The notes beneath the pieces were generated by a model. The model searched no databases. It saw only the letters and a program-made list of their open reading frames with translations, and was not told where the DNA came from. A program made the position numbers and the translations under genes. This document shows, in pieces, positions 8,808 through 64,000 of a DNA stretch of 64,000 nucleotides. The stretch's first letter is position 1. Each line of letters begins with the position of its first letter. The stretch is from IMG/VR virus record IMGVR_UViG_2724678985_000012. One strand, given 5' to 3'. The DNA comes from a virus. Taxonomy: Duplodnaviria; Heunggongvirae; Uroviricota; Caudoviricetes.

Positions 8808-9770
8808 GTGAGTATTTTAAATTCAGTTTCAGTAACTTTCAACACTTCTGAGTATAAAAACAACACTGAATACCACAAAAAAATCAAAGGTCATCAGTTG
8901 AGTTTTTTTGCTCGTCATAGCGGTCTTCTTTCCCCTTCACATAGCGCCATTATTGCCGAGTTCGCCAACCTGGCAGGGTCTACCGATGAATACATGATCC
9001 GTCGCTCATATGCTGATATGTCCGAGATTACAGGACGCAGCATTTCTACTGTGCGCCGGGCATTTGCTGAAGCGACGAAGTGCGGAATGCTTGTTAAGCA
9101 ACATCAGGTAGCGAATAACAATGCCCAGGTGTGTAACGTATATCGGTTTACGACACAATTTCTCCACTTCATTCATGTAGCAATGGAGATAGGGGGTAAG
9201 CAGGGCATCAAATTTGCCAACGCCACAAAGCTGGTTAAGCAGTTGATTTCAAAGGTTCGTTATTTTTTTGAAACTGGGAACCCCCTGTTCAAATTGAACA
9301 AGTCCCCCCATGTTCAAAATGAACAGCCAATAGAAAATAAGAGTCACTCTATAGCCAAAAGAAGAGAAAGATCATGCGCGGTTCAGCCAAAGGCTTCACC
9401 AGCAGATAGTACTCAAGCGGATAATGGGGGACTGGATAAAAAAACAGTAATCAGGGAAGAACATACCAACCACTGCCTGGCGGCGGCAAAAGCGAGAGCT
9501 GCAAAGCGTCGTTCAGACGAGGGGCACGCAAAACGGCAGGCTCTGTATCGTACCGCTGAAAAGCTGGCAAAAAAATTTGCATGGATACGTAGTGCCGCTA
9601 CCGCAGTGAATAAGCCTAAACAATCCAGTGCCCTGGATTTCTCAATGGATTATTCTGGCTCCCAGGGGTGTGTAACCATTGGTGAAGCCTTTGACCTGAT
9701 GAAACAGCGTGGCTATCGGTCTGAATTTGACCGGGAGGATTGGTCAATCCCTGCGGGATTTAGGGGATGA
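8808..9770 (+). CDS. hypothetical protein with winged-helix-like segment
   Basis: 320 aa; GTG start uncertain; segment ITGRSISTVRRAFAEA HTH-like; basic C-terminal half. Confidence 0.3.
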   Translation: MSILNSVSVTFNTSEYKNNTEYHKKIKGHQLSFFARHSGLLSPSHSAIIAEFANLAGSTDEYMIRRSYADMSEITGRSISTVRRAFAEATKCGMLVKQHQVANNNAQVCNVYRFTTQFLHFIHVAMEIGGKQGIKFANATKLVKQLISKVRYFFETGNPLFKLNKSPHVQNEQPIENKSHSIAKRRERSCAVQPKASPADSTQADNGGLDKKTVIREEHTNHCLAAAKARAAKRRSDEGHAKRQALYRTAEKLAKKFAWIRSAATAVNKPKQSSALDFSMDYSGSQGCVTIGEAFDLMKQRGYRSEFDREDWSIPAGFRG

Positions 9771-9821
9771 CCTGTGTGTCTACAAAGCATCCCAATGATC
9801 GGAAAATGCTCGCTCGATGAT

Positions 9822-9838
9822 TTGTGTTAGAAAATTAA
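9822..9838 (-). promoter_or_regulatory. C1-operator-like motif site 2 (with inverted partial partner at 9845-9856)
   Basis: TGTGTTAGAAAATTAATTT then GTTTCTAAAT. Confidence 0.45.
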
Positions 9839-10183: not shown

Positions 10184-10408
10184 ATGGTTAATGCCAATCC
10201 TTGCTCACGTCCTGAATTCATCTGGCGTTTCCACTCCCTGCAAAAACACTGCGATCACTTCGCAATTGCCGCAACCGAAAAAGAAGCCCGTTCTCTGATC
10301 CCTGATCAGCATGGTGTTCTTACTGGTCGTTTCTCTACTTCCCCACAACCAAACACTAATCCCTGGTATCGCAATATTACCAATCCCGGCATTGCGGAGG
10401 CACACTGA
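10184..10408 (+). CDS. icd: Icd-like small protein (immI module 1)
   Basis: 74 aa ORF whose stop overlaps ant start; c4-icd-ant arrangement; paralog at 49482. Confidence 0.5.
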   Translation: MVNANPCSRPEFIWRFHSLQKHCDHFAIAATEKEARSLIPDQHGVLTGRFSTSPQPNTNPWYRNITNPGIAEAH

Positions 10409-27054: not shown

Positions 27055-27447
27055 ATGGAACAAATCAGCAGCGCAGAAATTGCGGATATCATGATCAGGG
27101 CTGACTGCTATCTGACAGTCACTGAAATTACCACTCTCGCCAAAGAAAAATACCCTCATCTCCATGTTTCACGAGTAAGTGTAACTAACATCATTCGTCA
27201 TTTTGTTCGTTCAAGCAGGGCAATCTGTGAGCTGGATGATCGTGTGTATCCACGAAAATACTGGCTACATGGTCTGAACGGATATCAGTTCAAGGTGCGC
27301 GGGCGCACGCCTGAATACGGTAGCTTACTGGTTAAAAACTGTAGCAGGAAATCAGTCGAACAGGCGCGAAAAGAGCAACGAGAGCTGGTGGACATGGCGA
27401 ATAAGCTGTGGAATGCCGCCGTTAAAAAGCGTGGTGTTGCTTTATGA
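27055..27447 (+). CDS. putative late-promoter activator (Lpa-like) by synteny
   Basis: 130 aa, immediately upstream of pacA-like gene; operator-like motif in its promoter region. Confidence 0.3.
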   Translation: MEQISSAEIADIMIRADCYLTVTEITTLAKEKYPHLHVSRVSVTNIIRHFVRSSRAICELDDRVYPRKYWLHGLNGYQFKVRGRTPEYGSLLVKNCSRKSVEQARKEQRELVDMANKLWNAAVKKRGVAL

Positions 27448-28808
27448 GTCTGGTTAATTGGGAGGAGCACCGCGCCCGCTTTATAGCGTTGCGTGAAGAA
27501 AAAGGGATCACTGTAAAGGAATACTGTGAGGAGCATGGCCTTAGCTTCAATACAGCCAGAAAGCATCTCAATATGAAAAAAAATGAGGTGCGGTCGCAGG
27601 TAAAGACAACAAAAAAAAGCACCAAATCACCTGAAAAAAAACGGGCGGGAAGAGCAACAAAAAAGCTGGAAGAGGGTGCAGAAAAAACAAAATTTACAGA
27701 AATTGACAATTCGCAGGGCGCAGGTTCTTTCCGAAGTATGCCGAGAAAGAAAACTTCGGATCATGAAAATAATGCAAATAATAACAATGAGATAAAAGAA
27801 TCTGTCAGGAGATCATTGCGCGAAAAAATGGCGAAAATGATCCCCGAAGAAGATAAAAGCGCCCCAAAAATTGAGGGATCTTCAGCAATGATCCCTGGCG
27901 GTGCTGTGCAACGTGCCACATTGCCCACTACGAATGTGGCTCGCGACATGATGAAGAACGGCGCAGAAGAACACCTGCGGTTAGCAATTCAAATGGCGCA
28001 AGAGCGCGCACTTCAGTATCAAAGCATTGTTGATCAGGAGGCCGAACGTCTACAGGCGGAAATAGACGCCTTGGGCGATAAAGAGCCAGAAGGAATGCAC
28101 CCTGGGCAGCGCCTTCTCGGTCTAATCAGTGACGCGGCCTACTACATGAATGATTTTATCAGTAGGTTGGCAGCTATATATCAGTCCGAACAAAAGCTGC
28201 GACAGGGGGATGAAAAGCTTCGTCAGAGCGCTCGCCAGCAAGCATTCAAAGAGGCTGAGGCCAGAGAAAAACTCGAATTAGCACGCCTACAGGCCGAACA
28301 GCGTGGCAAAGAGATTGAATATCGCATTGGCGCTGACGCACGCGCTGCCAGAGTTATCGCCGCCGCTATACGTATGCGTGAGCGCGAGGAACTGGATGAT
28401 ATCGGTGTTGCTGAATACATCGAGCGCCAGGGGGTCAGCGTCCCGGCTATCCTCGCGGCGCGCGCGGCGAAAGCTATCACTCTTCTCGAACCACCTGTTT
28501 CTGACGTCAATGATGTTGATGATGAACAGCTGGACAAAGAGGCAAGGGAGTTTGCAACGCTTCAGGCTAACCATCCGCAATGGCTGGCAGAGCGCCGGGC
28601 GGATGTGGCAACCATTGTTGAAGAATTGGGGTGCGGAGATTACGACCGCAATGGCGAGCGTAAAGCTGGAGAATTCGAGGCCAACGACGAAGAGCTGGAT
28701 ATTGACCCTTCGGCAACGGCTGAAATTTACGGTGATTATGATGCATCTGATGCAGGGTATGACGCCGGAGATGATGATATCGCGATAGAACCGCCGGAGG
28801 ATGATTAA
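27444..28808 (+). CDS. pacA: terminase small subunit PacA-like
   Basis: 454 aa; N-terminal HTH; acidic C-terminus; translationally coupled to large subunit; GATC cluster inside. Confidence 0.6.
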   Translation: MSLVNWEEHRARFIALREEKGITVKEYCEEHGLSFNTARKHLNMKKNEVRSQVKTTKKSTKSPEKKRAGRATKKLEEGAEKTKFTEIDNSQGAGSFRSMPRKKTSDHENNANNNNEIKESVRRSLREKMAKMIPEEDKSAPKIEGSSAMIPGGAVQRATLPTTNVARDMMKNGAEEHLRLAIQMAQERALQYQSIVDQEAERLQAEIDALGDKEPEGMHPGQRLLGLISDAAYYMNDFISRLAAIYQSEQKLRQGDEKLRQSARQQAFKEAEAREKLELARLQAEQRGKEIEYRIGADARAARVIAAAIRMREREELDDIGVAEYIERQGVSVPAILAARAAKAITLLEPPVSDVNDVDDEQLDKEAREFATLQANHPQWLAERRADVATIVEELGCGDYDRNGERKAGEFEANDEELDIDPSATAEIYGDYDASDAGYDAGDDDIAIEPPEDD

Positions 28809-30343: not shown

Positions 30344-31381
30344 TTACCAGAGCTTCGCGGCGTACTGCGTTTGGGGGAATGTGTATCCGTAACGTTCTTC
30401 GATTGCTTTGCCGTATTTTTTACGAGCTTCATTCAGTTTAATGCCGGTCAGGTCGTCTCCAGAGGCCATCATTACGTCTAACAATTCCAGATCCATTTTA
30501 TCCAGCCTTGCCATTGCTTCACGTGATGTACGTATCTTACGTTCAATGATATGGCGAATAGCCGGATCGGCATCCTCCAGCATCTTAGCGGATTTCTGCT
30601 TAAGGCTTTCATTGCGAATATCGATGTTCCTTAAGATGTACGACTTCGCAACGTAGCTTGGCTGGTGTTTTTCCAGGTCACGAACACGATATAAGTTAAA
30701 ATCGCCGAGAAGGCTGCAAGGTACCGATTCGACGCCAGAATAAATTGTAATGCTCCGGCGTTCACCAACATTATTGACAACGGGGATCGTTGTCTTCGGT
30801 AGTCTTGCGAAAACCAATGCGCCATGTGCGCCAACTCTAAAGCGAGAAAGGGCATTGCTGCCTTCGATGTTTGTTGTCAGCACAACATCTGTATATGCCT
30901 CTTTACGCGCCCGGTAGATCTCGCCTTCAGGCTCAGCTTCAAAGAAGCGCTGTTCTTCTTCAAGAGCACCTACGATTTGAGAAAAAACCCTATTTTTCAG
31001 GCTTTTCTTTATGATTTTGTCGTATTTTTTTAGCAATTGTTCACGTGTAAATGTACGTGTTGTTGTAGCGCTTTGCACAACGACATGCGTGCTTTGATTG
31101 GTGTCCTCAATGATGAATGGGATCGGAGAATATACAGACTCAACAATGTTCGACGCTTTGCCGTCGGCATCGCGGCACATGTCAACGAAGGCTTTCCATT
31201 CAGCAAGACATTTTTCAGCTTCTTCTAATATGTTTTGGTCATGCGTTAATGCAACATGGCGGAATTCCTCGCCAGCATAACTGGTATCATGGAAAACAGA
31301 GTTTGCGACCACCAGCTCTTTCCACCGTTCAGCGGTTTGCAGGAACCGTTTGTACTCTTTCTCGATCGACTTCTTACTCAT
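30344..31381 (-). CDS. hypothetical protein in the pac-to-rox interval (candidate immunity repressor by position only)
   Basis: 345 aa; operator-like motif overlaps its promoter/start region. Confidence 0.3.
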   Translation of the reverse strand: MSKKSIEKEYKRFLQTAERWKELVVANSVFHDTSYAGEEFRHVALTHDQNILEEAEKCLAEWKAFVDMCRDADGKASNIVESVYSPIPFIIEDTNQSTHVVVQSATTTRTFTREQLLKKYDKIIKKSLKNRVFSQIVGALEEEQRFFEAEPEGEIYRARKEAYTDVVLTTNIEGSNALSRFRVGAHGALVFARLPKTTIPVVNNVGERRSITIYSGVESVPCSLLGDFNLYRVRDLEKHQPSYVAKSYILRNIDIRNESLKQKSAKMLEDADPAIRHIIERKIRTSREAMARLDKMDLELLDVMMASGDDLTGIKLNEARKKYGKAIEERYGYTFPQTQYAAKLW

Positions 31382-31394
31382 TATTCCTACTCGA

Positions 31395-31413
31395 TTTAGT
31401 TTTCTAACATAAA
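31395..31413 (+). promoter_or_regulatory. C1-operator-like motif site 8
   Basis: GATTTAGTTTTCTAACATAAAAT immediately upstream of 30344-31381 start. Confidence 0.5.
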
Positions 31414-31591
31414 ATTACTATGACAAATTTATGTCGAATAACAGAGTGAGTAAAGGATCGAACTGTGATTTTTTGTCATCAATTTTAGAAAACCAACCGT
31501 AGAAACCACACTTCGCAAATTAAAGACCATGAAGGCAACGTGTTACTGGTCATCATCAATCTATGATGGATTTAAAAAAATCGGCATTTTA

Positions 31592-31623
31592 TAACTTTAA
31601 ATAATTGGCATTATTTAAAGTTA
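31592..31623. other. rox recombination site (target of Dre)
   Basis: TAACTTTAAATAATTGGCATTATTTAAAGTTA, exact reverse complement of the recalled 32-bp rox site; about 150 bp upstream of dre. Confidence 0.85.
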
Positions 31624-31775
31624 AGCTATAATCATGGGTGGATGATCAGTGTTGACATCACTGAAAATACGTGCCTCGAATCAAAGGTTTGAATCTTGAA
31701 AATTAACTTATAGCTACCCTGTCATTTTTATATTTTTCGCGTAGCGTCATCTGTATATAGAGGTTAAATAGTTTC

Positions 31776-32804
31776 ATGAGTGAATTAATTATCTCTGGCA
31801 GCTCCAGTGGTTTTCTGCGCAACATTGGCAAAGAGTACCAGGAGGCCGCAGAAAACTTTATGCGGTTCATGAATGACCAGGGGGCTTACGCGCCTAATAC
31901 TTTGCGCGATCTCCGGTTAGTGTTTCACTCCTGGGCGAGATGGTGTCACGCTCGCCAGCTCGCCTGGTTCCCGATCTCTCCAGAGATGGCCCGCGAGTAT
32001 TTTCTTCAGCTGCATGATGCTGATCTGGCTTCGACCACCATTGATAAGCACTACGCCATGCTGAACATGCTGCTTTCGCATTGTGGCCTTCCGCCACTTT
32101 CGGATGATAAAAGTGTTTCTCTGGCTATGCGGCGCATCCGGCGTGAAGCGGCAACGGAAAAAGGCGAACGAACAGGCCAGGCTATACCGCTGCGGTGGGA
32201 CGATCTGAAACTGCTCGACGTCCTGTTGTCCAGGTCAGAACGGCTGGTGGACCTGCGCAACCGGGCTTTTCTCTTTGTTGCATACAATACGCTGATGCGC
32301 ATGTCTGAAATCTCGCGTATTCGTGTAGGAGATCTGGACCAAACAGGTGACACTGTCACGCTACATATTTCACACACGAAGACAATAACGACCGCCGCCG
32401 GGCTTGATAAGGTGCTTTCCCGTCGCACTACTGCTGTGCTGAATGACTGGCTGGATGTTTCCGGGCTTCGTGAACATCCTGACGCGGTGCTGTTCCCGCC
32501 GATACACCGTAGCAATAAGGCCAGGATTACGACAACGCCCCTTACTGCACCTGCAATGGAGAAAATATTTAGTGACGCCTGGGTGTTGCTGAATAAAAGA
32601 GATGCCACTCCAAACAAGGGGAGATACCGGACGTGGACCGGGCATAGTGCTCGTGTCGGGGCTGCTATCGATATGGCAGAAAAGCAGGTGTCTATGGTGG
32701 AGATCATGCAGGAAGGAACCTGGAAGAAACCGGAAACACTTATGCGGTATCTGCGCCGTGGCGGCGTGTCTGTGGGGGCTAATAGCCGCCTGATGGATTC
32801 ATAA
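31776..32804 (+). CDS. dre: Dre tyrosine recombinase (Cre homolog of D6-type phages)
   Basis: 342 aa; aligns along full length with Cre (LNML, SLAMRRIR, RIRVGD, GHSARVGAA, IMQ-G-W motifs); adjacent rox site. Confidence 0.9.
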   Translation: MSELIISGSSSGFLRNIGKEYQEAAENFMRFMNDQGAYAPNTLRDLRLVFHSWARWCHARQLAWFPISPEMAREYFLQLHDADLASTTIDKHYAMLNMLLSHCGLPPLSDDKSVSLAMRRIRREAATEKGERTGQAIPLRWDDLKLLDVLLSRSERLVDLRNRAFLFVAYNTLMRMSEISRIRVGDLDQTGDTVTLHISHTKTITTAAGLDKVLSRRTTAVLNDWLDVSGLREHPDAVLFPPIHRSNKARITTTPLTAPAMEKIFSDAWVLLNKRDATPNKGRYRTWTGHSARVGAAIDMAEKQVSMVEIMQEGTWKKPETLMRYLRRGGVSVGANSRLMDS

Positions 32805-32822
32805 ATTAAATTTCTAACACAT
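32805..32822 (+). promoter_or_regulatory. C1-operator-like motif site 9
   Basis: AATTAAATTTCTAACACATC right after dre stop. Confidence 0.45.
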
Positions 32823-32877
32823 CTTTTTAGATTGTTATCTTTGCTGTAAAGTACCCTCGCCTATTTCGGAGGGTGCT

Positions 32878-47819: not shown

Positions 47820-48010
47820 CAAAATTTCCCCAAAATCGTGACGCAAAACATAAGCACTGCGAAAAGCTCAATACCAAGTTCAAGTAGCGCCAACGCCCCG
47901 AAAAACAACACATAGAACAGGCCAATCTCATTCACAGATGGCTGGTGGATCGCACTTAAAGCTATAAGCATCATGTCCTCCAAACAGTTATCAGGAATGA
48001 TATTAATGTT

Positions 48011-48027
48011 TTGTATTAGAAAATCAA
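48011..48027 (-). promoter_or_regulatory. C1-operator-like motif site 11 (variant)
   Basis: TGTATTAGAAAATCAATTT upstream of ref-like gene. Confidence 0.4.
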
Positions 48028-48091: not shown

Positions 48092-48670
48092 ATGCAGAAA
48101 CAGAGCTATTGGGAGAAACAGAGACAAAAAGCCATGCAAAAATTGGCTGACCCGGCCTGGCGAGAGGAACAAAGGGCAAAGCGCCTTCAACAAGCTCAAC
48201 GCCAGCAGCAGCGAGCGAGAGAAAAAGCCGCATCGCCTGAATATCGGCAAAAAAAAATTGAAAAAGCAAAGCAATATGACCAGCGGAGAAAAGAGAAAGC
48301 TGTATCCGCTCCGTCCAAAAAAACACGCACGTCACGCGGCCTGAAGGGCAGATCACTCACAGCCGATGAACGCCGGATACAGACCGCTATCGGTACTCTC
48401 CCCTGCATTGCCTGCCATATTCACGGGAAACATAGCCCAGTGGTATCCCTGCACCATATCTTCGGGAGAACGGCAGAGAACGCACATAAATATGTCCTCC
48501 CTTTGTGTAAATGGCACCACCAGTACGCAGCGCCAGCCGAGGTCCGAGAACAATATCCCTGGCTGGTCCCTGTTCATGCTGATGGAAAAATAGGCGGAAA
48601 AGCAGATTTCATACGGCACAATGCCGATGAAATGGCGTTGTATCAGATGGCGATTGAATTGATAAATTAG
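48092..48670 (+). CDS. ref: Ref-like HNH endonuclease (recombination enhancement function)
   Basis: 192 aa; basic Q/R/K-rich N-terminus then CIACHIHG...SLHHIFGR...PLCKWHH. Confidence 0.6.
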   Translation: MQKQSYWEKQRQKAMQKLADPAWREEQRAKRLQQAQRQQQRAREKAASPEYRQKKIEKAKQYDQRRKEKAVSAPSKKTRTSRGLKGRSLTADERRIQTAIGTLPCIACHIHGKHSPVVSLHHIFGRTAENAHKYVLPLCKWHHQYAAPAEVREQYPWLVPVHADGKIGGKADFIRHNADEMALYQMAIELIN

Positions 48671-53657: not shown

Positions 53658-54840
53658 TTTCCTGAAAAACCAGGACGGGCGCTATATCACTGACGGTCTG
53701 TCCTCTAAGGACTTCACGCGTTTATTCGACCTTATCAGGAAAGAACAAACCCGTAAGCGCCGACAAGCTCACCGGACGCTGACGCCAGGCAGACTTAGGA
53801 ACAAATCCGCCGAAGATATTCTCAAGTTAGGGAAGAAAAAAGGCGGCACGTTCTTTACGCGAGACGATCTGAAAGGCTTCGAAAAGCTACGGAGTAAAAC
53901 GCGCGAAAAATATGACAGCAAGACGGCTGGCATCACATACGCCCAGCTGGTGGCATCCAGCCAGGCTATCGATATTAAGCGTGCAAATAACGCCGTGGAT
54001 GACGGATCTGGTATCAAAAGAGCTACACCCGTATCTCTTCGCCACAATGTGATTAATATCCGCGTAGAAGCATCGGATATATCCGTCCACCAGCACCATA
54101 TCGTCCGGATACGCTTTGAAGAATGGGATCAGATGGTTGATGATATCGCAGAAGACGATAAATCAGCTCTCAAAATCACTAAATCACTGTGCGCCGGGCG
54201 AGTGTCTTTCGATTGTGACTGTGGTCGTCATCAATACTGGTATCGTTACATCGCCACTGCGGGTAACTTTGCCCTGGCACCGCCAAAAGAATACGCCTAT
54301 CCAAAAGTTCGCAACCCGAAGCTGCAAGGCGTCGCCTGTAAACACGTGATCCACTCAATGACGCGGTTACAGTCCGCCAGTTGGCAAATGAGTATTGCTC
54401 GTGCGCTACAAAAGGCTGCAACGCAAATTGCATTTGGTGACGATCGCCGCCGTACAACCAAACACTTCTCAAAAGAAGACGAGAAGGAGTTTAATCGCAA
54501 TCGTAGCAGTAAAACGAACGTTGACGCTGCCAAGCGAGAATGGAGGCTCTATCAGAAGCGCCAGGCCGCTTTAAGCACAAAACTGGCAAAGGACAACGGC
54601 AAGATTGACAAGCTACGTGACCAACTGACCAAGGCCAGAAAGTTGTCAGACGCACAGAAAAAACGGGCGGCAGCAAAAGAAGCGGCGTTGCAACGTGAGA
54701 AACAGAAAAACAAGGAGCTTCAGCAACGCCTGGCCGATCAGTTCGCACTGAAGAAGCAGGCGTTCATTGATGCGCTTGTCATGGCTGGAACACCACCAGC
54801 ACAAGCTGAAAAAATGTTCATGGAGTACATAAAAAATTAA
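53650..54840 (+). CDS. SWIM-zinc-finger-like protein with basic coiled-coil C-terminus
   Basis: 396 aa; FDCDCGRH...CKHVIH resembles SWIM CxC...CxH. Confidence 0.4.
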   Translation: MPDFLKNQDGRYITDGLSSKDFTRLFDLIRKEQTRKRRQAHRTLTPGRLRNKSAEDILKLGKKKGGTFFTRDDLKGFEKLRSKTREKYDSKTAGITYAQLVASSQAIDIKRANNAVDDGSGIKRATPVSLRHNVINIRVEASDISVHQHHIVRIRFEEWDQMVDDIAEDDKSALKITKSLCAGRVSFDCDCGRHQYWYRYIATAGNFALAPPKEYAYPKVRNPKLQGVACKHVIHSMTRLQSASWQMSIARALQKAATQIAFGDDRRRTTKHFSKEDEKEFNRNRSSKTNVDAAKREWRLYQKRQAALSTKLAKDNGKIDKLRDQLTKARKLSDAQKKRAAAKEAALQREKQKNKELQQRLADQFALKKQAFIDALVMAGTPPAQAEKMFMEYIKN

Positions 54841-54842
54841 CA

Positions 54843-54870
54843 AAGGTGGGTTTATCCCACCTTTTTATTA
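54843..54870. terminator. bidirectional rho-independent terminator
   Basis: ggtggg-tttat-cccacc flanked by A-run and T-run. Confidence 0.7.
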
Positions 54871-55586
54871 GCATCGCATTTAATTTTTTCAAGTGAATCA
54901 GAAAGCTTTGAGAGAAGCTCCTCAAGTGTTTCCCTGTCATTTGTATCACCCGAACGAAAAGATGAGTTTTTCACGGCGGTAAAAAATTCATAAAAATCAT
55001 CCACCGAATTTAAGCTCTCACCTTTCTCTCTATATAATTTAATAATATGAATGATATCGCTATCCACACATTCAATCTGTTTCCTAATTTCTTTAAGCCG
55101 TTTTTCTAATGATTCAAGTTCTTCTTCTTCTTGTTCAATATACTTTTTAACGTCTCTCTGCTTCTTAATGGCTTTCTTAATATCACTGTTAATTGTCCTT
55201 ATTTGTTCTTTTTTATTTGCAATTTCATCTATTTTTCTTAATTTAGCATATAATGTGCTTGTCACCAAAGAAATTAACAGGGTTAACAGTGGCGCTAATA
55301 TTGACGCCACAACACCATAAATAAAAGGCAAAACAAAATGAGCTACGAACGATGGTAAAAAAAGATTCCCCAATAATGGGATCTTTTCCCCGACAAACAC
55401 TATAGATAATGTATACATAACATCATCTTTTGACTTCAGTAATATAAATATGTCTCGCCAATTAGAAATTAAAAACGAAATAAAAATGTAGGCAAAAACC
55501 TTATTAAACAACTTATCTTTTACAGCATCTTCTAACAGATTTTGGGTAGAGGAGTTTTCCTTTTCTATTGATGAATCAGCGCTCAT
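54852..55586 (-). CDS. AT-rich membrane protein: N-terminal TM helices + C-terminal coiled coil (candidate abortive-infection / exclusion effector)
   Basis: 244 aa; about 33% GC; own promoter region; terminator hairpin upstream. Confidence 0.45.
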   Translation of the reverse strand: MSADSSIEKENSSTQNLLEDAVKDKLFNKVFAYIFISFLISNWRDIFILLKSKDDVMYTLSIVFVGEKIPLLGNLFLPSFVAHFVLPFIYGVVASILAPLLTLLISLVTSTLYAKLRKIDEIANKKEQIRTINSDIKKAIKKQRDVKKYIEQEEEELESLEKRLKEIRKQIECVDSDIIHIIKLYREKGESLNSVDDFYEFFTAVKNSSFRSGDTNDRETLEELLSKLSDSLEKIKCDANKKVG

Positions 55587-55646
55587 ATAATTACCAAATA
55601 TTTAAACATTGATTTTATGTAAAAGCGGTCATCCAGACCGCAAAAC

Positions 55647-56006
55647 TTAAACACCAACCAGACTTTCCAGTGGAATACCAAACTGGGCATGTAAACGACG
55701 AATCATAGGTAACGTCAAATTTCGTGTCCCATTAAGCACTTCGTAAACACGGTTTGACTTACCAATTGCCGGTTCCAGATCCTTCACGGTCAGTCCTTGC
55801 TGTTCCATACGGAATTTAATGGCCTCAATAGGTGATGGTGGCTCAATTGGGTAATGTTTTTTCTCGTACTCCTCAATGAGAAGACACATAACCTCAAAGA
55901 AATCGCCTTCCGGTGTGTTCATTTCCGGTTCGTTATCGAACATCGGTTCGACCGCACGCAGTGCGGCCTCATAATCTTGTTCTGTACGGATAGGTTTAAT
56001 GTTCAT
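55647..56006 (-). CDS. HigA-type (ygjM-like) HTH antitoxin-like protein, orphan
   Basis: 119 aa; C-terminal IGKSNRVYEVLNGTRNLTLPMIRRLHAQFGI HTH; flanked by terminators. Confidence 0.55.
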   Translation of the reverse strand: MNIKPIRTEQDYEAALRAVEPMFDNEPEMNTPEGDFFEVMCLLIEEYEKKHYPIEPPSPIEAIKFRMEQQGLTVKDLEPAIGKSNRVYEVLNGTRNLTLPMIRRLHAQFGIPLESLVGV

Positions 56007-59476: not shown

Positions 59477-60126
59477 AGCGTAGAGCGCAAATTGTTGGAA
59501 CTGTGCACCCGGCAGGGCTTATGCGTGCTCAAGTCCGTGTTTTACCTGACTGGAATGGCGTTCCTGATGACGATCTACCCTGGGCGGAATACCTGTTACC
59601 CATCGGAAACGCTTTTGTACCCACAGTCAAAGGTGACCTGGTCTGGGTAGAGTTTCCTTATTTAGATGTTAACGGTCGAATAGACACCAGACGCCCAATG
59701 ATAGTTGGTGCCGCTCAGGATGCACCGGGAGGAATTCCAAACGTTGCACCAGAAGCATCTGGCAAAGGCAACGGCTGGACGCCGCCGGAAGTAGATGGAG
59801 CACCTCCCCGCCCCCAAATCTCAGCAACGAAAGACTTCGTTATTCACCGCAACAATATTCTTGAAGTACGAACTGCTGGTGGCGGCTATGAAATTGCCAA
59901 TACGGCAGCAGGCTCAAGGATTGGCATGAATGAGTCCGGGCAGATATATATCATTGGTCCGGCTGATGTAATCGTGAATGCAGGAGGGAGTGTTAACGTC
60001 AAATCAGCCAACAACATCAATGTTAAAGGGGAAAATATTGCTGTCACCGCTAACGGAGACATAGCTTTCAAGGCAGGAGGAACCTTTCAGGCCACTGCTA
60101 GCAACTTCGATTTCAAGAAAGGATAG
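59473..60126 (+). CDS. baseplate spike protein (gpV / Mu gp45-like)
   Basis: 217 aa; N-terminal OB-fold pattern RAQVRVLPDW...GDLVWVEF; C-terminal beta-helix-like repeats. Confidence 0.5.
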   Translation: MKRRAQIVGTVHPAGLMRAQVRVLPDWNGVPDDDLPWAEYLLPIGNAFVPTVKGDLVWVEFPYLDVNGRIDTRRPMIVGAAQDAPGGIPNVAPEASGKGNGWTPPEVDGAPPRPQISATKDFVIHRNNILEVRTAGGGYEIANTAAGSRIGMNESGQIYIIGPADVIVNAGGSVNVKSANNINVKGENIAVTANGDIAFKAGGTFQATASNFDFKKG

Positions 60127-60157
60127 AAAATGCACCCATTTGTGTTAGATAATTAAT

Positions 60158-60175
60158 ATGTATTTTCTAACACAA
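60158..60175 (+). promoter_or_regulatory. C1-operator-like motif site 13, embedded in 14-bp inverted repeat
   Basis: CCATTTGTGTTAGA...TCTAACACAAATGG around TATTTTCTAACAC, upstream of rdgC-like gene. Confidence 0.5.
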
Positions 60176-60185
60176 ATGGTGAGAC

Positions 60186-61091
60186 ATGAGATCAGTCGCT
60201 TTCAAAAATATCTTCATCTATCGTCTTTCACGCGAAGTTAGCTGGGATACTGCAGAAGTAAATGCAGCCCTTAGCAAGTTTGTGTTTACCCCATGCGGTT
60301 CTCAGGATATGGCTAAAGCTGGTTGGACCCCCGTTCTTGGCGACAACCTCACCCATGAATACCAAGGTTTTCTTCTGATACAGCATAAACGAGAGGAAAA
60401 AATCCTACCCTCTCAAGTGCTCAAAGAAGAGTTACAGAAAAAAATCCTGACACTTGAAGAAGAGCAAGACAGAAAGCTGAAGAAGACTGAAAAAGATTCG
60501 CTGAAGGATGAAGTGCTTCACTCTCTGCTTCCTCGTGCTTTCACGAGAAAATCAGTCGCTAAAATCCTGATAGACCGAAGCAATCATCTGGTTTTTGTCG
60601 AGGCCAGCAGTGCTAAAAAAGCAGAGGATCAGCTGGCTTTGTTACGGAAATCGCTTGGCAGCTTGCCCGTTGTCCCCTTCTCTCCGAAAGACCCATTAGA
60701 ACTGACCATCACTGGCTGGATTAAAAATGGCTTCCCGAACGGTTTCCGTGCCGGTGAGGAAGCGACCTTAAAAGCATTGCTTGATGATGGCGGCGCGGTC
60801 CGCTGCAAAAAAGTGGACCTGCTATCCGACGAGATCATGAGTCATATAGAAGCTGGTAAGGTTGCAACCACAGTTGCGGTTAACTGGCAAGACCGTGCAT
60901 TTTTCAGACTGAATGACGATATGAGTATCAAGGCTTTGTCGTTCAGCGACGAATTGTACGACCAGAACGACGATATTGATCGAGAGGATGTTGCGCAACG
61001 ATTTGACGCTGACTTTATCCTGTTTACTGCTGAATTATCCGCGATGTTCACTTCGCTGGTGGAGGCCGTTGGTGGTGAAGCAGAACGTTAA
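60186..61091 (+). CDS. rdgC: RdgC-like recombination-associated protein
   Basis: 301 aa; long collinear similarity to E. coli RdgC ([49 protein letters not shown]). Confidence 0.8.
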
Positions 61092-61104
61092 CAATAGACC
61101 TCTG

Positions 61105-61755
61105 ATGGTGAGTCTTTGTGATTTCACGGGGAAAATGGTCGCCCCCTGGCTGGAGCATGGTATAGATGCTGTTATCGTCGATCCACAACACGCAGAGACC
61201 AGAGATGAGCTGATGCAATCAGGCGCAGTTCTGACACGTATCAGTGCGATTATCGATAGTGATGAAGTTTATGCTTTTCTCCGAAATAATTTACAACGTA
61301 TTGTGTTTTTAGCTGGTTTTCCGCCGTGCACGGACCTTGCTGTTTCCGGTGCGCGCTGGTTTGCGCATAAGGCTGACAAAGATCCGTTTTTCCAGTTCAA
61401 AGCGATGCAGGTCGTCTGGCAGTGTTACGATATTGCAAAGATGATTGGTTGCCCGTACATGATTGAAAACCCGGTCAGCCAAATATCGACATTCTGGCGT
61501 AAACCTGATCACATCTTCCATCCTTACCACTTCACTGCATATTGCAAGGAAGACAATTACACCAAAAAAACATGCCTCTGGAGCGGGCAAGGCTTTGTCA
61601 TGCCTGATGCCCTAATGGACGAATCATTAGGCAAGCCAGATAACAGAATCCATACCGCGCCACCTGGACCTGAAAGGGCTAATTTTCGAAGTGCTACTCC
61701 GCATGGATTCGCAAAGGCAGTTTTCGAAGCGAATAAGGGGGTGCTCTATGAGTAA
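61105..61755 (+). CDS. small C5-cytosine-methyltransferase-like protein
   Basis: about 216 aa; motif I-like LCDFTG, PC motif GFPPCTDL, ENV-like MIENPVS; no obvious target-recognition domain. Confidence 0.35.
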   Translation: MVSLCDFTGKMVAPWLEHGIDAVIVDPQHAETRDELMQSGAVLTRISAIIDSDEVYAFLRNNLQRIVFLAGFPPCTDLAVSGARWFAHKADKDPFFQFKAMQVVWQCYDIAKMIGCPYMIENPVSQISTFWRKPDHIFHPYHFTAYCKEDNYTKKTCLWSGQGFVMPDALMDESLGKPDNRIHTAPPGPERANFRSATPHGFAKAVFEANKGVLYE

Positions 61756-62653
61756 ATCTATAGCAAGCATAGCCATAAAAAAACAGGATACGATGGCTGA
61801 AATTAGCTATATGCGCACCATTCGGACTCCGGATGAATATGAGCGCCCGATCTTCAAATGGGTAGGCGGTAAATTCTCAGAGTTGCCTACAGTGCTTGAG
61901 CATCTACCACACGGCAAGCGGTTAATAGAACCATTCGTTGGTGGCGGTTCCGTATTTACAAATGCAGGATTTCACCACAACCTGCTTAATGATATTAACG
62001 GTGACCTGATTAACTTCTATCAGACATTGCAGCGAGAAGGACATTCGCTCGTCACGCTGTCATATAGTTTTTTCCAAAATTACAACAACGCTGACGCTTA
62101 CCTCGAAGTGCGTGAGGCATTTAACAGAGGAAAGTATGACCAGCTACATCATGCTGCCGCCTTTTTGTACCTTAATCGGCACTGTTTTAATGGCGTAACG
62201 CGGTACAACCAAAATGGCGAGTTCAACGTGGGGTATGGCAAATACAAAGCGCCCTACTTCCCACATGCAGAGATGGAGGCATTTTTGGCTGATGACGTAC
62301 TCAAAAACACGTCCTTTGTATCAGGTGACTTTGCTGGCGTCATCGAGGCGGCTGGTGAAGGCGATGTGATTTTTTGCGATCCGCCGTATGAACCGCTGCC
62401 GGATACAGAAGGGTTTACCAGTTATTCAGGAAATAGCTTCCGTTTCGACGAACAGAAACGGCTGGTATCTCTATTGGTGGAAGCCCACCAGCGCGGCGCT
62501 AAGGTAGTGATAACAAATAGTGGTGCGCCAAACATCCGTGAACTATATGAAGGAAACGGGTTTAAAGTACATCATATGGCAGCCAGACGGTCGGTTTCCT
62601 GCAAGGCGTCAACACGTGTAGTTGCTAACGATATAATTGCGATAATGAAGTAA
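61748..62653 (+). CDS. Dam-family N6-adenine DNA methyltransferase
   Basis: IFKWVGGK, EPFVGGGSVF and DPPY motifs; collinear with E. coli Dam; ATG 61748 with AAGGGGG SD. Confidence 0.85.
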   Translation: MSKSIASIAIKKQDTMAEISYMRTIRTPDEYERPIFKWVGGKFSELPTVLEHLPHGKRLIEPFVGGGSVFTNAGFHHNLLNDINGDLINFYQTLQREGHSLVTLSYSFFQNYNNADAYLEVREAFNRGKYDQLHHAAAFLYLNRHCFNGVTRYNQNGEFNVGYGKYKAPYFPHAEMEAFLADDVLKNTSFVSGDFAGVIEAAGEGDVIFCDPPYEPLPDTEGFTSYSGNSFRFDEQKRLVSLLVEAHQRGAKVVITNSGAPNIRELYEGNGFKVHHMAARRSVSCKASTRVVANDIIAIMK

Positions 62654-62684
62654 AAAACGCCGCAGTAGCGGCGTTTACTTTTTT
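62654..62684. terminator. bidirectional rho-independent terminator between dam-like gene and glnS
   Basis: aaacgccgc-agta-gcggcgttt with T-runs on both strands. Confidence 0.8.
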
Positions 62685-62701: not shown

Positions 62702-64000
62702 TTAACCTAACTTCGCCCAGGTATCACGCAGCCCAACGGTGCGGTTAAATACCGGTTTTTCCGCCGTGGAATGGCGGCTGTCGAGGCAGAAATAACCTTC
62801 ACGCTCAAACTGGAATGCTTTACCCGCTACCGCTTCTTTCAGCGACGGTTCAGCAAAGCCCTGTTTGATCACCAGCGATTCCGGGTTAATCACCGACAGG
62901 AAATCATCCGCAGCACCTGGGTTCGGTACACTGAACAGACGGTCGTACAGGCGAATTTCAACCGGCAGCGCATGGGCCGCGCTTACCCAGTGGATAACGC
63001 CTTTCACTTTACGACCATCTGCCGGATCTTTGCTTAAAGTATCGGCATCGTAGGTACAGAAGATGGTGGTGATATTGCCTTCGGCATCTTTCTCCACGCG
63101 TTCAGCCTTAATGACGTAAGCATTACGCAGACGCACTTCTTTACCCAGCACCAGACGTTTGTACTGCTTGTTAGCTTCTTCGCGGAAATCGGCGCGGTCG
63201 ATCCAAATCTCACCGCTAAACGGCACCTGACGGCTACCCATTTCCGGTTTGTTTGGATGGTTCGGCATGGTGACCATTTCGCCTTCGCCCTGGTAGTTTT
63301 CGATAACCAGTTTCACCGGATCGATAACCGCCATTGCGCGCGGGGCATTTTCGTTGAGATCTTCACGGATGCAGGATTCCAGCGACGCCATCTCAATGGT
63401 GTTGTCCTGCTTGGTCACGCCGATGCGTTTGCAGAACTCACGAATAGAAGCAGCAGTGTAACCACGACGACGCAGACCGGAAATGGTCGGCATACGCGGG
63501 TCATCCCAGCCTTCAACGTGCTTGTCGGTTACCAGCTGGTTCAGCTTACGCTTGGACATCACGGTGTATTCCAGATTCAGGCGCGAGAATTCGTACTGGC
63601 GCGGATGAACAGGAATGGTGATGTTGTCCAGTACCCAGTCATACAGACGACGGTTGTCCTGGAACTCAAGCGTACACAGAGAGTGCGTAATACCTTCCAG
63701 CGCATCGCTGATGCAGTGGGTGAAGTCGTACATCGGGTAGATGCACCACTTGTTGCCAGTCTGGTGGTGTTCAGCAAACTTAATACGGTACAGCACCGGG
63801 TCGCGCATCACGATAAACGGCGAAGCCATGTCGATTTTCGCACGCAGGCAGGCTTTACCTTCTTCAAAACCACCGGCACGCATTTTTTCGAACAGCGCCA
63901 GGTTCTCTTCAACGCTGCGGTCGCGGTACGGGCTGTTTTTACCCGGCTGCGTCAGGGTGCCGCGGTATTCGCGGATCTGTTCCGGCGTCAGTTCGTCAAC
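62702..64000 (-). CDS. glnS: glutaminyl-tRNA synthetase, 3' part (gene continues beyond window end)
   Basis: translation matches E. coli GlnRS from residue about 120 to C-terminus; E. coli-like GC and codon usage; ends ...TWAKLG. Confidence 0.9.

Follow-up and report, generated by a model that had tools for sequence, protein, structure and literature searches.

The rdgC, small methyltransferase and dam block

The 64,000-nucleotide (nt) stretch of viral DNA analyzed here (IMG/VR record IMGVR_UViG_2724678985_000012; hereafter the window) carries, at positions 60186-62653, a block of three overlapping and co-oriented plus-strand genes. These encode a homologue of RdgC, a small protein resembling the cytosine-5 DNA methyltransferases (C5-MTases), and a Dam-family (D12) N6-adenine DNA methyltransferase (MTase) (Table 1). 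The window is a D6-like, P1-type circular phage-plasmid, that is, a plasmid prophage of Escherichia coli, and we consider it highly probable that the block is its rdgC/small-MTase/dam operon, with the roles proposed below. The small protein is most likely an active, orphan DNA cytosine-5 MTase that depends on S-adenosylmethionine (SAM) and belongs to a compact phage family.

The identities of the two outer genes agree with an earlier note made from the letters of the window, which had claimed a clear RdgC homologue and a DPPY-bearing Dam-family MTase whose gene overlaps the small one. The RdgC protein matched PF04381 over nearly its full length (residues 6-298 of 301; E 4.8e-102, 341.7 bits against a cut-off of 25), exceeded the curated cut-off of the NCBIfam RdgC equivalog NF001462 (387 bits against 330), matched phrog_724 (E 1.3e-126), and is 54% identical in amino acids (aa) to P1 HrdC. 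From this family membership, it would presumably bind double-stranded DNA and damp RecA-dependent reactions on the phage or plasmid DNA. The Dam protein matched PF02086 (E 2e-56, 192 bits, cut-off 22) and TIGR00571 (E 4.4e-74, 249.5 bits, cut-off 114.85), and contains the expected DPPY and FVGGGS elements. It shows 67% identity to the C-terminal half of P1 Dmt and, alone among the proteins of the block, matched phrog_116, at profile positions 510-777.

The small gene likely starts at a GTG codon, giving a protein of 226 residues, rather than at an ATG further downstream that would give 216. We prefer the GTG because a GGAGG Shine-Dalgarno sequence lies 8 nt upstream of it while the ATG lacks one, because it agrees with the annotation of Escherichia phage D6 and with the gene calls in the closest database homologues, and because it regains the approximately 10 residues that the homologues carry ahead of the SLCD strand. 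With this start, rdgC and the small gene overlap by 17 nt, and the small gene and dam overlap by 8 nt. These overlaps suggest translational coupling, and the three genes probably form one unit of transcription and translation. Residue numbers of the small protein refer to the 226-residue form unless the ATG is mentioned.

Across the block, the DNA shows 91.3% identity to that of phage D6 (MF356679), where the same gene order is found. The D6 counterparts are orf65, labeled as RdgC family and "similar to P1 hrdC"; orf64, a "putative DNA-cytosine methylase"; and orf63, a [quoted passage not shown]. Further D6 genes in the window include lpa, pacA, pacB, c1, and dre. In a search of 5,426 complete E. 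coli genomes, at least 80% of the query was covered in 73 records, and the block showed approximately 98% DNA identity to E. coli plasmids of 90-95 kb, in which the RefSeq label of the middle gene is "hypothetical protein". The block has thus already been annotated in D6 and is understood by analogy with P1; it is real but ordinary.

The earlier note had also placed the block at the phage end. The synteny with D6 and the plasmid matches show that it does not lie there, as the element is circular and the next gene downstream, glnS (glutaminyl-tRNA synthetase), corresponds to D6 orf62. Chromosomal glnS is very similar, and nearly all of the 5,426 E. coli genomes matched the gene at 95-99%. On D6-type elements, glnS is a gene of the element itself and not flanking host DNA (PMC6799933). 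We ruled out that it is a host gene at the boundary of a prophage, given its equivalence to D6 orf62 and its contiguity with the block in plasmids, and also that it is a pseudogene, given a reading frame that stays open as far as the window extends.

Table 1. Positions, in window coordinates, of the features of the block and of related features elsewhere on the element.
Feature	Position	Strand	Remarks
rdgC / hrdC homologue, 301 aa	60186-61091	+	PF04381, phrog_724, NF001462
Small C5-MTase-like protein, 226 aa	61075-61755	+	GTG start at 61075; 216 aa from ATG 61105
Motif IV, GFPPCT	61315-61332	+	Presumed nucleophile Cys85 (Cys75 from ATG), codon 61327-61329
Motif VI, IENPV	61462-61476	+	Glu131
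Variable segment, 35 aa	61582-61686	+	Between motif VIII-like YTKKTCLW and motif IX/X-like RSATPxGFAxAV
Dam-family (D12) N6-adenine DNA MTase, 301 aa	61748-62653	+	PF02086, TIGR00571, motifs
FVGGGS within EPFVGGGS of Dam	61928-61951	+	From residue 61
DPPY of Dam	62378-62389	+	Residues 211-214
G+C-rich hairpin	62655-62676	.	9-bp stem with 6 GC pairs; T runs on both strands; between convergent dam and glnS (terminator scan)
glnS, glutaminyl-tRNA synthetase	62702-64000 (window end)	-	D6 orf62; open throughout
Weak promoter-like site	60124-60153		TAGAAA-18-GATAAT
Inverted pair of asymmetric 19-mers (ATTTGTGTTAGAAAATTAA type)	60138-60156 (+), 60159-60177 (-)		Candidate C1 operator pair
Other copies of the 19-mer	9820-9838 (+), 31396-31414 (-), 32806-32824 (-), 48009-48027 (+)		Motif scan
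GATC cluster, 5 sites in about 135 bp	27759-27893	.	Inside pacA; GGATCA, AGATCA, TGATCC, GGATCT, TGATCC
pacA, terminase small subunit	27444-28808		phrog_1711, E 5e-184
D6 c1 repressor, rox site position, and Dre tyrosine recombinase	30344-32804		c1 on the - strand; Dre at 31776-32804
Ref-like RecA-filament endonuclease homologue	48092-48670	+	phrog_2321, E 1e-82
Low-G+C region	about 54750-55750		G+C 0.31-0.34; between tail genes

The small protein and its family

The small protein had no match in Pfam (E <= 0.1), in NCBIfam, or among PDB sequences (phmmer). It did match phrog_757, "DNA methyltransferase", with an E value of 6.3e-79 over residues 34-257 of the long open reading frame (ORF). The earlier note had read C5-MTase-like motifs I, IV (with its PC) and VI from the protein, and these correspond to a motif I-like SLCDFTG, to GFPPCT, and to IENPV, respectively. 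It had added that the protein leaves no room for a target-recognition domain (TRD), which is essentially right: where canonical C5-MTases carry this domain, the small protein has a variable segment of 35 residues, a length that is also the median among 95 homologues (range 31-77 aa). Three relatives (P0007, P0009, and P0121) carry insertions in this segment.

A word-indexed search returned at least 6933 homologues, and there were 2530 representatives at 50% identity among 1.84 billion proteins; their lengths are mostly ~202-250 aa. Homologues were held by 1589 phage records, including Drexlerviridae, Webervirus, Jerseyvirus-like, rV5-like, Campylobacter, and Flavobacterium phages, and many of these records annotate the family as "Dcm-like" or "DNA methyltransferase". 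Most members are stand-alone orphans, as in the early region of Warwickvirus, the nin region of Cronobacter lambdoid prophages, and a Pseudomonas prophage. The triad of RdgC, small MTase, and Dam recurs on a contig of 85 kb, where the small MTase shares only 63% identity with that of the window.

Residue conservation was counted in an alignment of 95 diverse members of 202-250 aa, which extends down to about 33% identity. Invariant in all 95 were Cys85 of the FPPC element, Glu131 and Pro133 of ENP, and Lys164, Thr166, and Trp169 of YTKKTCLW, while the Asn of motif VI was conserved in 90. The Asp that follows strand 2 and is expected to contact the SAM ribose (Asp36; D26 from the ATG) was found in 94 of the 95. 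The SAM-binding loop of the family reads S-L-x-D-x-T/S-G, with its G in 80 of the 95 sequences; the motif III position varies within the family and lacks a conserved Asp, with Asp in 14 and Arg in 29.

Inteins typically occupy active-centre sites. In one homologue (P0212, 548 aa), a Hint and LAGLIDADG intein sits precisely at the junction of FPP and the catalytic Cys (...GFPP/CFTGDT...VHN/CTNLSVSG..., with slashes marking the junctions). The predicted fold of the small protein is closest to those of DNMT3, its best structural match, and bacterial C5-MTases, whereas unrelated Rossmann folds came out at about 9.5 in the structural comparison of the predicted model. In a profile-profile comparison (hhalign) with the M.HhaI family, the match was weak (E 0.059), with FPPC placed on GFPC (C81) and IENP on MENV (E119); the M.HhaI homologue set was narrow (>70% identity), too narrow for a strong profile.

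Functional information comes from the Dcm protein of phage K42, which is linked to the small protein through a Warwickvirus homologue. The protein bas04_0049 of Warwickvirus FritzSarasin (236 aa, "Dcm-like") is 37% identical to the small protein over the full length (E 2e-43), has near-identical relatives among Warwickvirus, and aligns its C82, E128, K175, and K176 with Cys85, Glu131, and Lys164-Lys165. All phage K42 mutants that escape retron Ec86 disrupt a 711-bp "Dcm-like" gene, and the K42 Dcm protein is reported to trigger this retron (bioRxiv 10.1101/2023.08.16.553469). In the same study, expression of K42 Dcm raised 5-methylcytosine (5mC) in vivo on multicopy single-stranded DNA (msDNA) as measured by liquid chromatography coupled to mass spectrometry (LC-MS), and no rise was seen with a C82A/E128A/K175A/K176A mutant. 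As the gene length and the residue numbering of K42 Dcm are matched in the Warwickvirus relative, K42 Dcm appears to belong to the same family as the small protein. We found nothing in the literature on the specificity of this family beyond the K42 and retron study.

Taken together, the invariant Cys, Glu, and Lys, the intein at the Cys, the C5-MTase-like fold, and the 5mC formed by K42 Dcm argue against the proposal of the earlier note that the small protein may be catalytically incomplete. Based on these similarities, the protein would keep a Rossmann core together with the residues for covalent catalysis, namely the Cys of FPPC, the Glu of ENP, and the conserved Lys-Lys strand. Its role would most likely be the self-protection of phage DNA against restriction. 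Because one member of the family is reported as a trigger, D6-like plasmids with the small MTase may also interact with immunity of the retron Ec86 type. Beyond this locus, a family of more than 6900 homologues that has neither a Pfam nor an NCBIfam model means that the methylation capacity of phages and plasmids is undercounted. The remaining interest therefore lies with the family as a whole, as an abundant compact C5-MTase-like clade with a retron link, and not with the locus.

Proposed operon boundaries, C1 operators and role in packaging

Upstream of rdgC, we observed an asymmetric 19-mer in two inverted copies, which overlap a weak promoter-like site, the second copy ending 8 nt ahead of the rdgC ATG. 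The 59-nt gap before rdgC is 100% identical in D6. With up to 3 mismatches allowed, ATTTGTGTTAGAAAATTAA had 6 hits in the window against 0.04 expected. Of the copies outside the block, one precedes the c1 repressor gene by 15 nt and another precedes the Ref-like gene by 64 nt; a third lies just after dre, and the fourth is in the intergenic region between 8808-9770 and ant. This fourth copy precedes the anti-repressor gene at 10408 by about 570 nt, and a 74-aa ORF (10184-10408) lies between the two. Compared with the annotated P1 operators Odmt and Oban (ATTGCTCTAATAAAT[T/A]T), the 19-mer agrees at 11 of 17 positions. In P1, C1 controls the c1, ref, and ant operons. Based on the placement of the 19-mer near c1, ref, and ant and on its likeness to the P1 operators, we infer that the set probably represents the C1 operators of a D6-type element, with the inverted pair as a candidate divalent operator, and that the operon is probably repressed by C1 in the plasmid state and switched on in lytic growth. 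We also considered whether the inverted repeat could be a terminator and ruled this out, since the repeat is AT-rich with a loop of 16 nt, lacks a T tract, and has arms that are both copies of the asymmetric 19-mer recurring near the starts of c1, ref, and ant.

At the other end, where dam and glnS converge, the G+C-rich hairpin is likely a bidirectional terminator and would close the operon. The operon would run from the promoter-like site overlapped by the candidate C1 operator pair to this terminator ahead of the phage-borne glnS.

Two of the regions that hold copies of the 19-mer are of note in themselves. One stretch holds the c1 repressor gene, the rox site position, and the gene for the Dre tyrosine recombinase, Dre/rox being an alternative to Cre/lox, and this stretch matches the D6 immC record AY753669 at 99% identity. 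Next to rdgC, the Ref-like gene gives the element a second RecA-related gene.

By analogy with P1, the Dam protein most likely methylates GATC, the activity annotated for the half of P1 Dmt to which it is 67% identical. Such methylation would free the phage from dependence on the Dam of its host. P1 requires GATC methylation for the cleavage of pac, and it cannot do without dmt in Dam- hosts only (PMC12707154). In the window, a single stretch of up to 200 bp holds at least five GATC sites, and it lies inside the pacA gene, which is also present in the D6 immC record. This cluster is a probable pac site of the P1 type and thus a likely functional target of Dam, which fits a P1-like use of Dam in packaging. 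Site frequencies gave no clue to the specificity of either MTase, as neither GATC (228 sites against 311 expected) nor CCWGG (188 against approximately 205) stood out from other palindromes in the window. Over the whole window, CTAG was strongly under-represented, with 17 sites against 73 expected from trinucleotides, and GGCC was under-represented as well (141 against 240).

Elsewhere on the element, the G+C content drops in a region between tail genes (Table 1). Judged by its offset from the D6 annotation, this region corresponds to the hypothetical orf73 beside a toxin-antitoxin set of the RelE/HigA type (D6 orf70-72), and it is probably an inserted cargo module.

Alternative readings and comparison with known systems

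Several points weigh against the roles proposed here. The small protein showed no significant sequence link to canonical C5-MTases: neither it nor its Warwickvirus homologue matched PF00145 at E <= 0.1, and the hhalign comparisons, although in register, gave weak E values of 0.06-0.3. A profile search of the PDB hit solely M.HaeIII and DNMT2, with E values of 0.16 and 0.37 that are not significant, the alignments staying in register between motif I and the PPC motif. The QxRxR of motif VIII is absent and replaced by Y-T-K-K-T-C-L-W, and the catalytic loop of the predicted model has low confidence, with a predicted local distance difference test (pLDDT) score below 50 at residues 76-86. The evidence for 5mC concerns the K42 homologue, not the window protein or D6 orf64, and the family link to K42 is drawn through the FritzSarasin relative, not through the K42 sequence. 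In addition, the K42 experiments were carried out in a dcm+ host with four residues mutated together, and the CCWGG specificity was assumed, not measured (bioRxiv 10.1101/2023.08.16.553469). Both hrdC and dmt of P1 are non-essential in a Dam+ host (PMC10695390), so a selective role of the block is tentative. C1 control of the block is proposed solely by analogy with P1.

We weighed these points against other explanations of the small protein. It could be a dead or non-enzymatic relative of MTases, such as a DNMT3L-like accessory or a DNA-binding partner modulating the adjacent Dam or RdgC, as its lack of a Pfam or NCBIfam match, its tiny TRD equivalent, its degenerate motif I (DFTG, not FxGxG), its motif VIII without RxR, and its tight coupling to Dam, with which fusions exist, would allow. 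We judge this to be very unlikely, since Cys, Glu, and Lys are kept in every one of the 95 aligned homologues and the SAM-ribose Asp in all but one, down to about 33% identity. Moreover, an intein homes to the catalytic Cys, most members of the family stand alone without an adjacent Dam, as in Warwickvirus, the lambdoid nin region, and the Pseudomonas prophage, and the K42 homologue raised 5mC where its active-site mutant did not. The protein could also be active within the C5-MTase fold on another substrate or by another chemistry, acting on RNA in the manner of DNMT2, on single-stranded or structured DNA, or by transferring another group, for instance carboxymethyl from carboxy-S-adenosylmethionine (Cx-SAM). 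This is improbable in view of the 5-methylcytosine, and not another adduct, found by LC-MS with K42, of the duplex-DNA MTases that are the best overall structural matches, and of genomic contexts (beside Dam, in early regions of phages, or in nin regions) that are typical of orphan DNA MTases. Between these readings, the evidence favors an active DNA cytosine-5 MTase.

A bolder version of that reading holds that the family of approximately 220 aa is a distinct minimal class of DNA cytosine-5 MTases, in which about 35 residues replace the TRD, perhaps with a new mode of reading DNA. We find this rather doubtful. If it were true, a very short or relaxed specificity giving broad cover against restriction could follow, or DNA could be recognized by a dimer, like DNMT3, or in concert with Dam. 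DNMT3 is itself a C5-MTase with a very small TRD. Concerted action with Dam is suggested by their repeated pairing, adjacent here and in locus L006, joined in the P0121 fusion, and paralleled in P1 Dmt; one form of it could be the modification of the C of GATC-containing sites. The P0121 protein (563 aa; locus L008, 218-1909) is a natural fusion of a small MTase (residues 2-252) with a D12 Dam (303-546), and it mimics the architecture of P1 Dmt with another cytosine-MTase module.

The pairing also raises the question of whether the block is a split P1 Dmt, that is, the product of a fission into C5 and Dam halves. The earlier note had described the two activities of Dmt as appearing here in separate adjacent genes. 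This part holds for Dam, given its 67% identity to the C-terminal half of Dmt; it does not hold for the small protein, which has no significant similarity to the N-terminal half. Fission is favored by the same position directly after hrdC/rdgC and by the same order, C5-like and then Dam. Against it, the N-terminal half of Dmt is a canonical PF00145 domain (E 1.6e-35, spanning the first ~480 aa), to which the small protein showed no significant similarity (BLASTP E about 1; hhalign E 0.24-0.3), the small protein belongs to a large stand-alone family of about 220 aa, and the P0121 fusion of a small-family protein with Dam is a separate event. We therefore consider a split Dmt very unlikely. From these sequence comparisons, it looks like the cytosine-MTase slot of a P1-type operon has been filled by a different MTase family, a replacement and not a split.

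Among known elements, D6 is alike in the three genes, their order, their overlaps, and their flanks, with a baseplate gene upstream and glnS downstream. Dam is 99.3% identical in amino acids between the two, while the small MTase, at 91%, is the more diverged of the two proteins compared, and the window is nearer to the resident E. coli plasmids (98%) than to D6. Among the Dcm-like proteins of Drexlerviridae, bas04_0049 is of the same family as the small protein, with the catalytic Cys, Glu, and Lys-Lys in alignment, and K42 Dcm appears to be so too. bas04_0049 differs in a 14-aa insertion before the KK strand, and it is encoded by a stand-alone gene of virulent siphoviruses without linkage to RdgC or Dam.

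With the canonical C5-MTases (PF00145, such as M.HhaI and M.HaeIII, and DNMT3A/B), the small protein shares the predicted fold, the order of its elements, the PC of motif IV, and the EN(V/P) of motif VI. The canonical enzymes have 327 aa or more in total, compared with approximately 220 in the small protein. M.HhaI places approximately 105 aa between motifs VIII and IX, where the small protein has approximately 35, and the RxR of motif VIII has become K-K.

In P1, the annotated uhr-hrdC-dmt operon, with its C1 operator Odmt and promoter Pdmt, likewise presents an RdgC homologue followed by a cytosine-type and then a Dam-type MTase. The genes are preceded by an operator in P1 and by an operator-like site in the window, with 11 of 17 positions shared. 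The two differ in that uhr is absent from the block of the window, that the genomic neighbors are not the same, and that P1 Dmt is one protein of 754 aa where the window has two separate ORFs.

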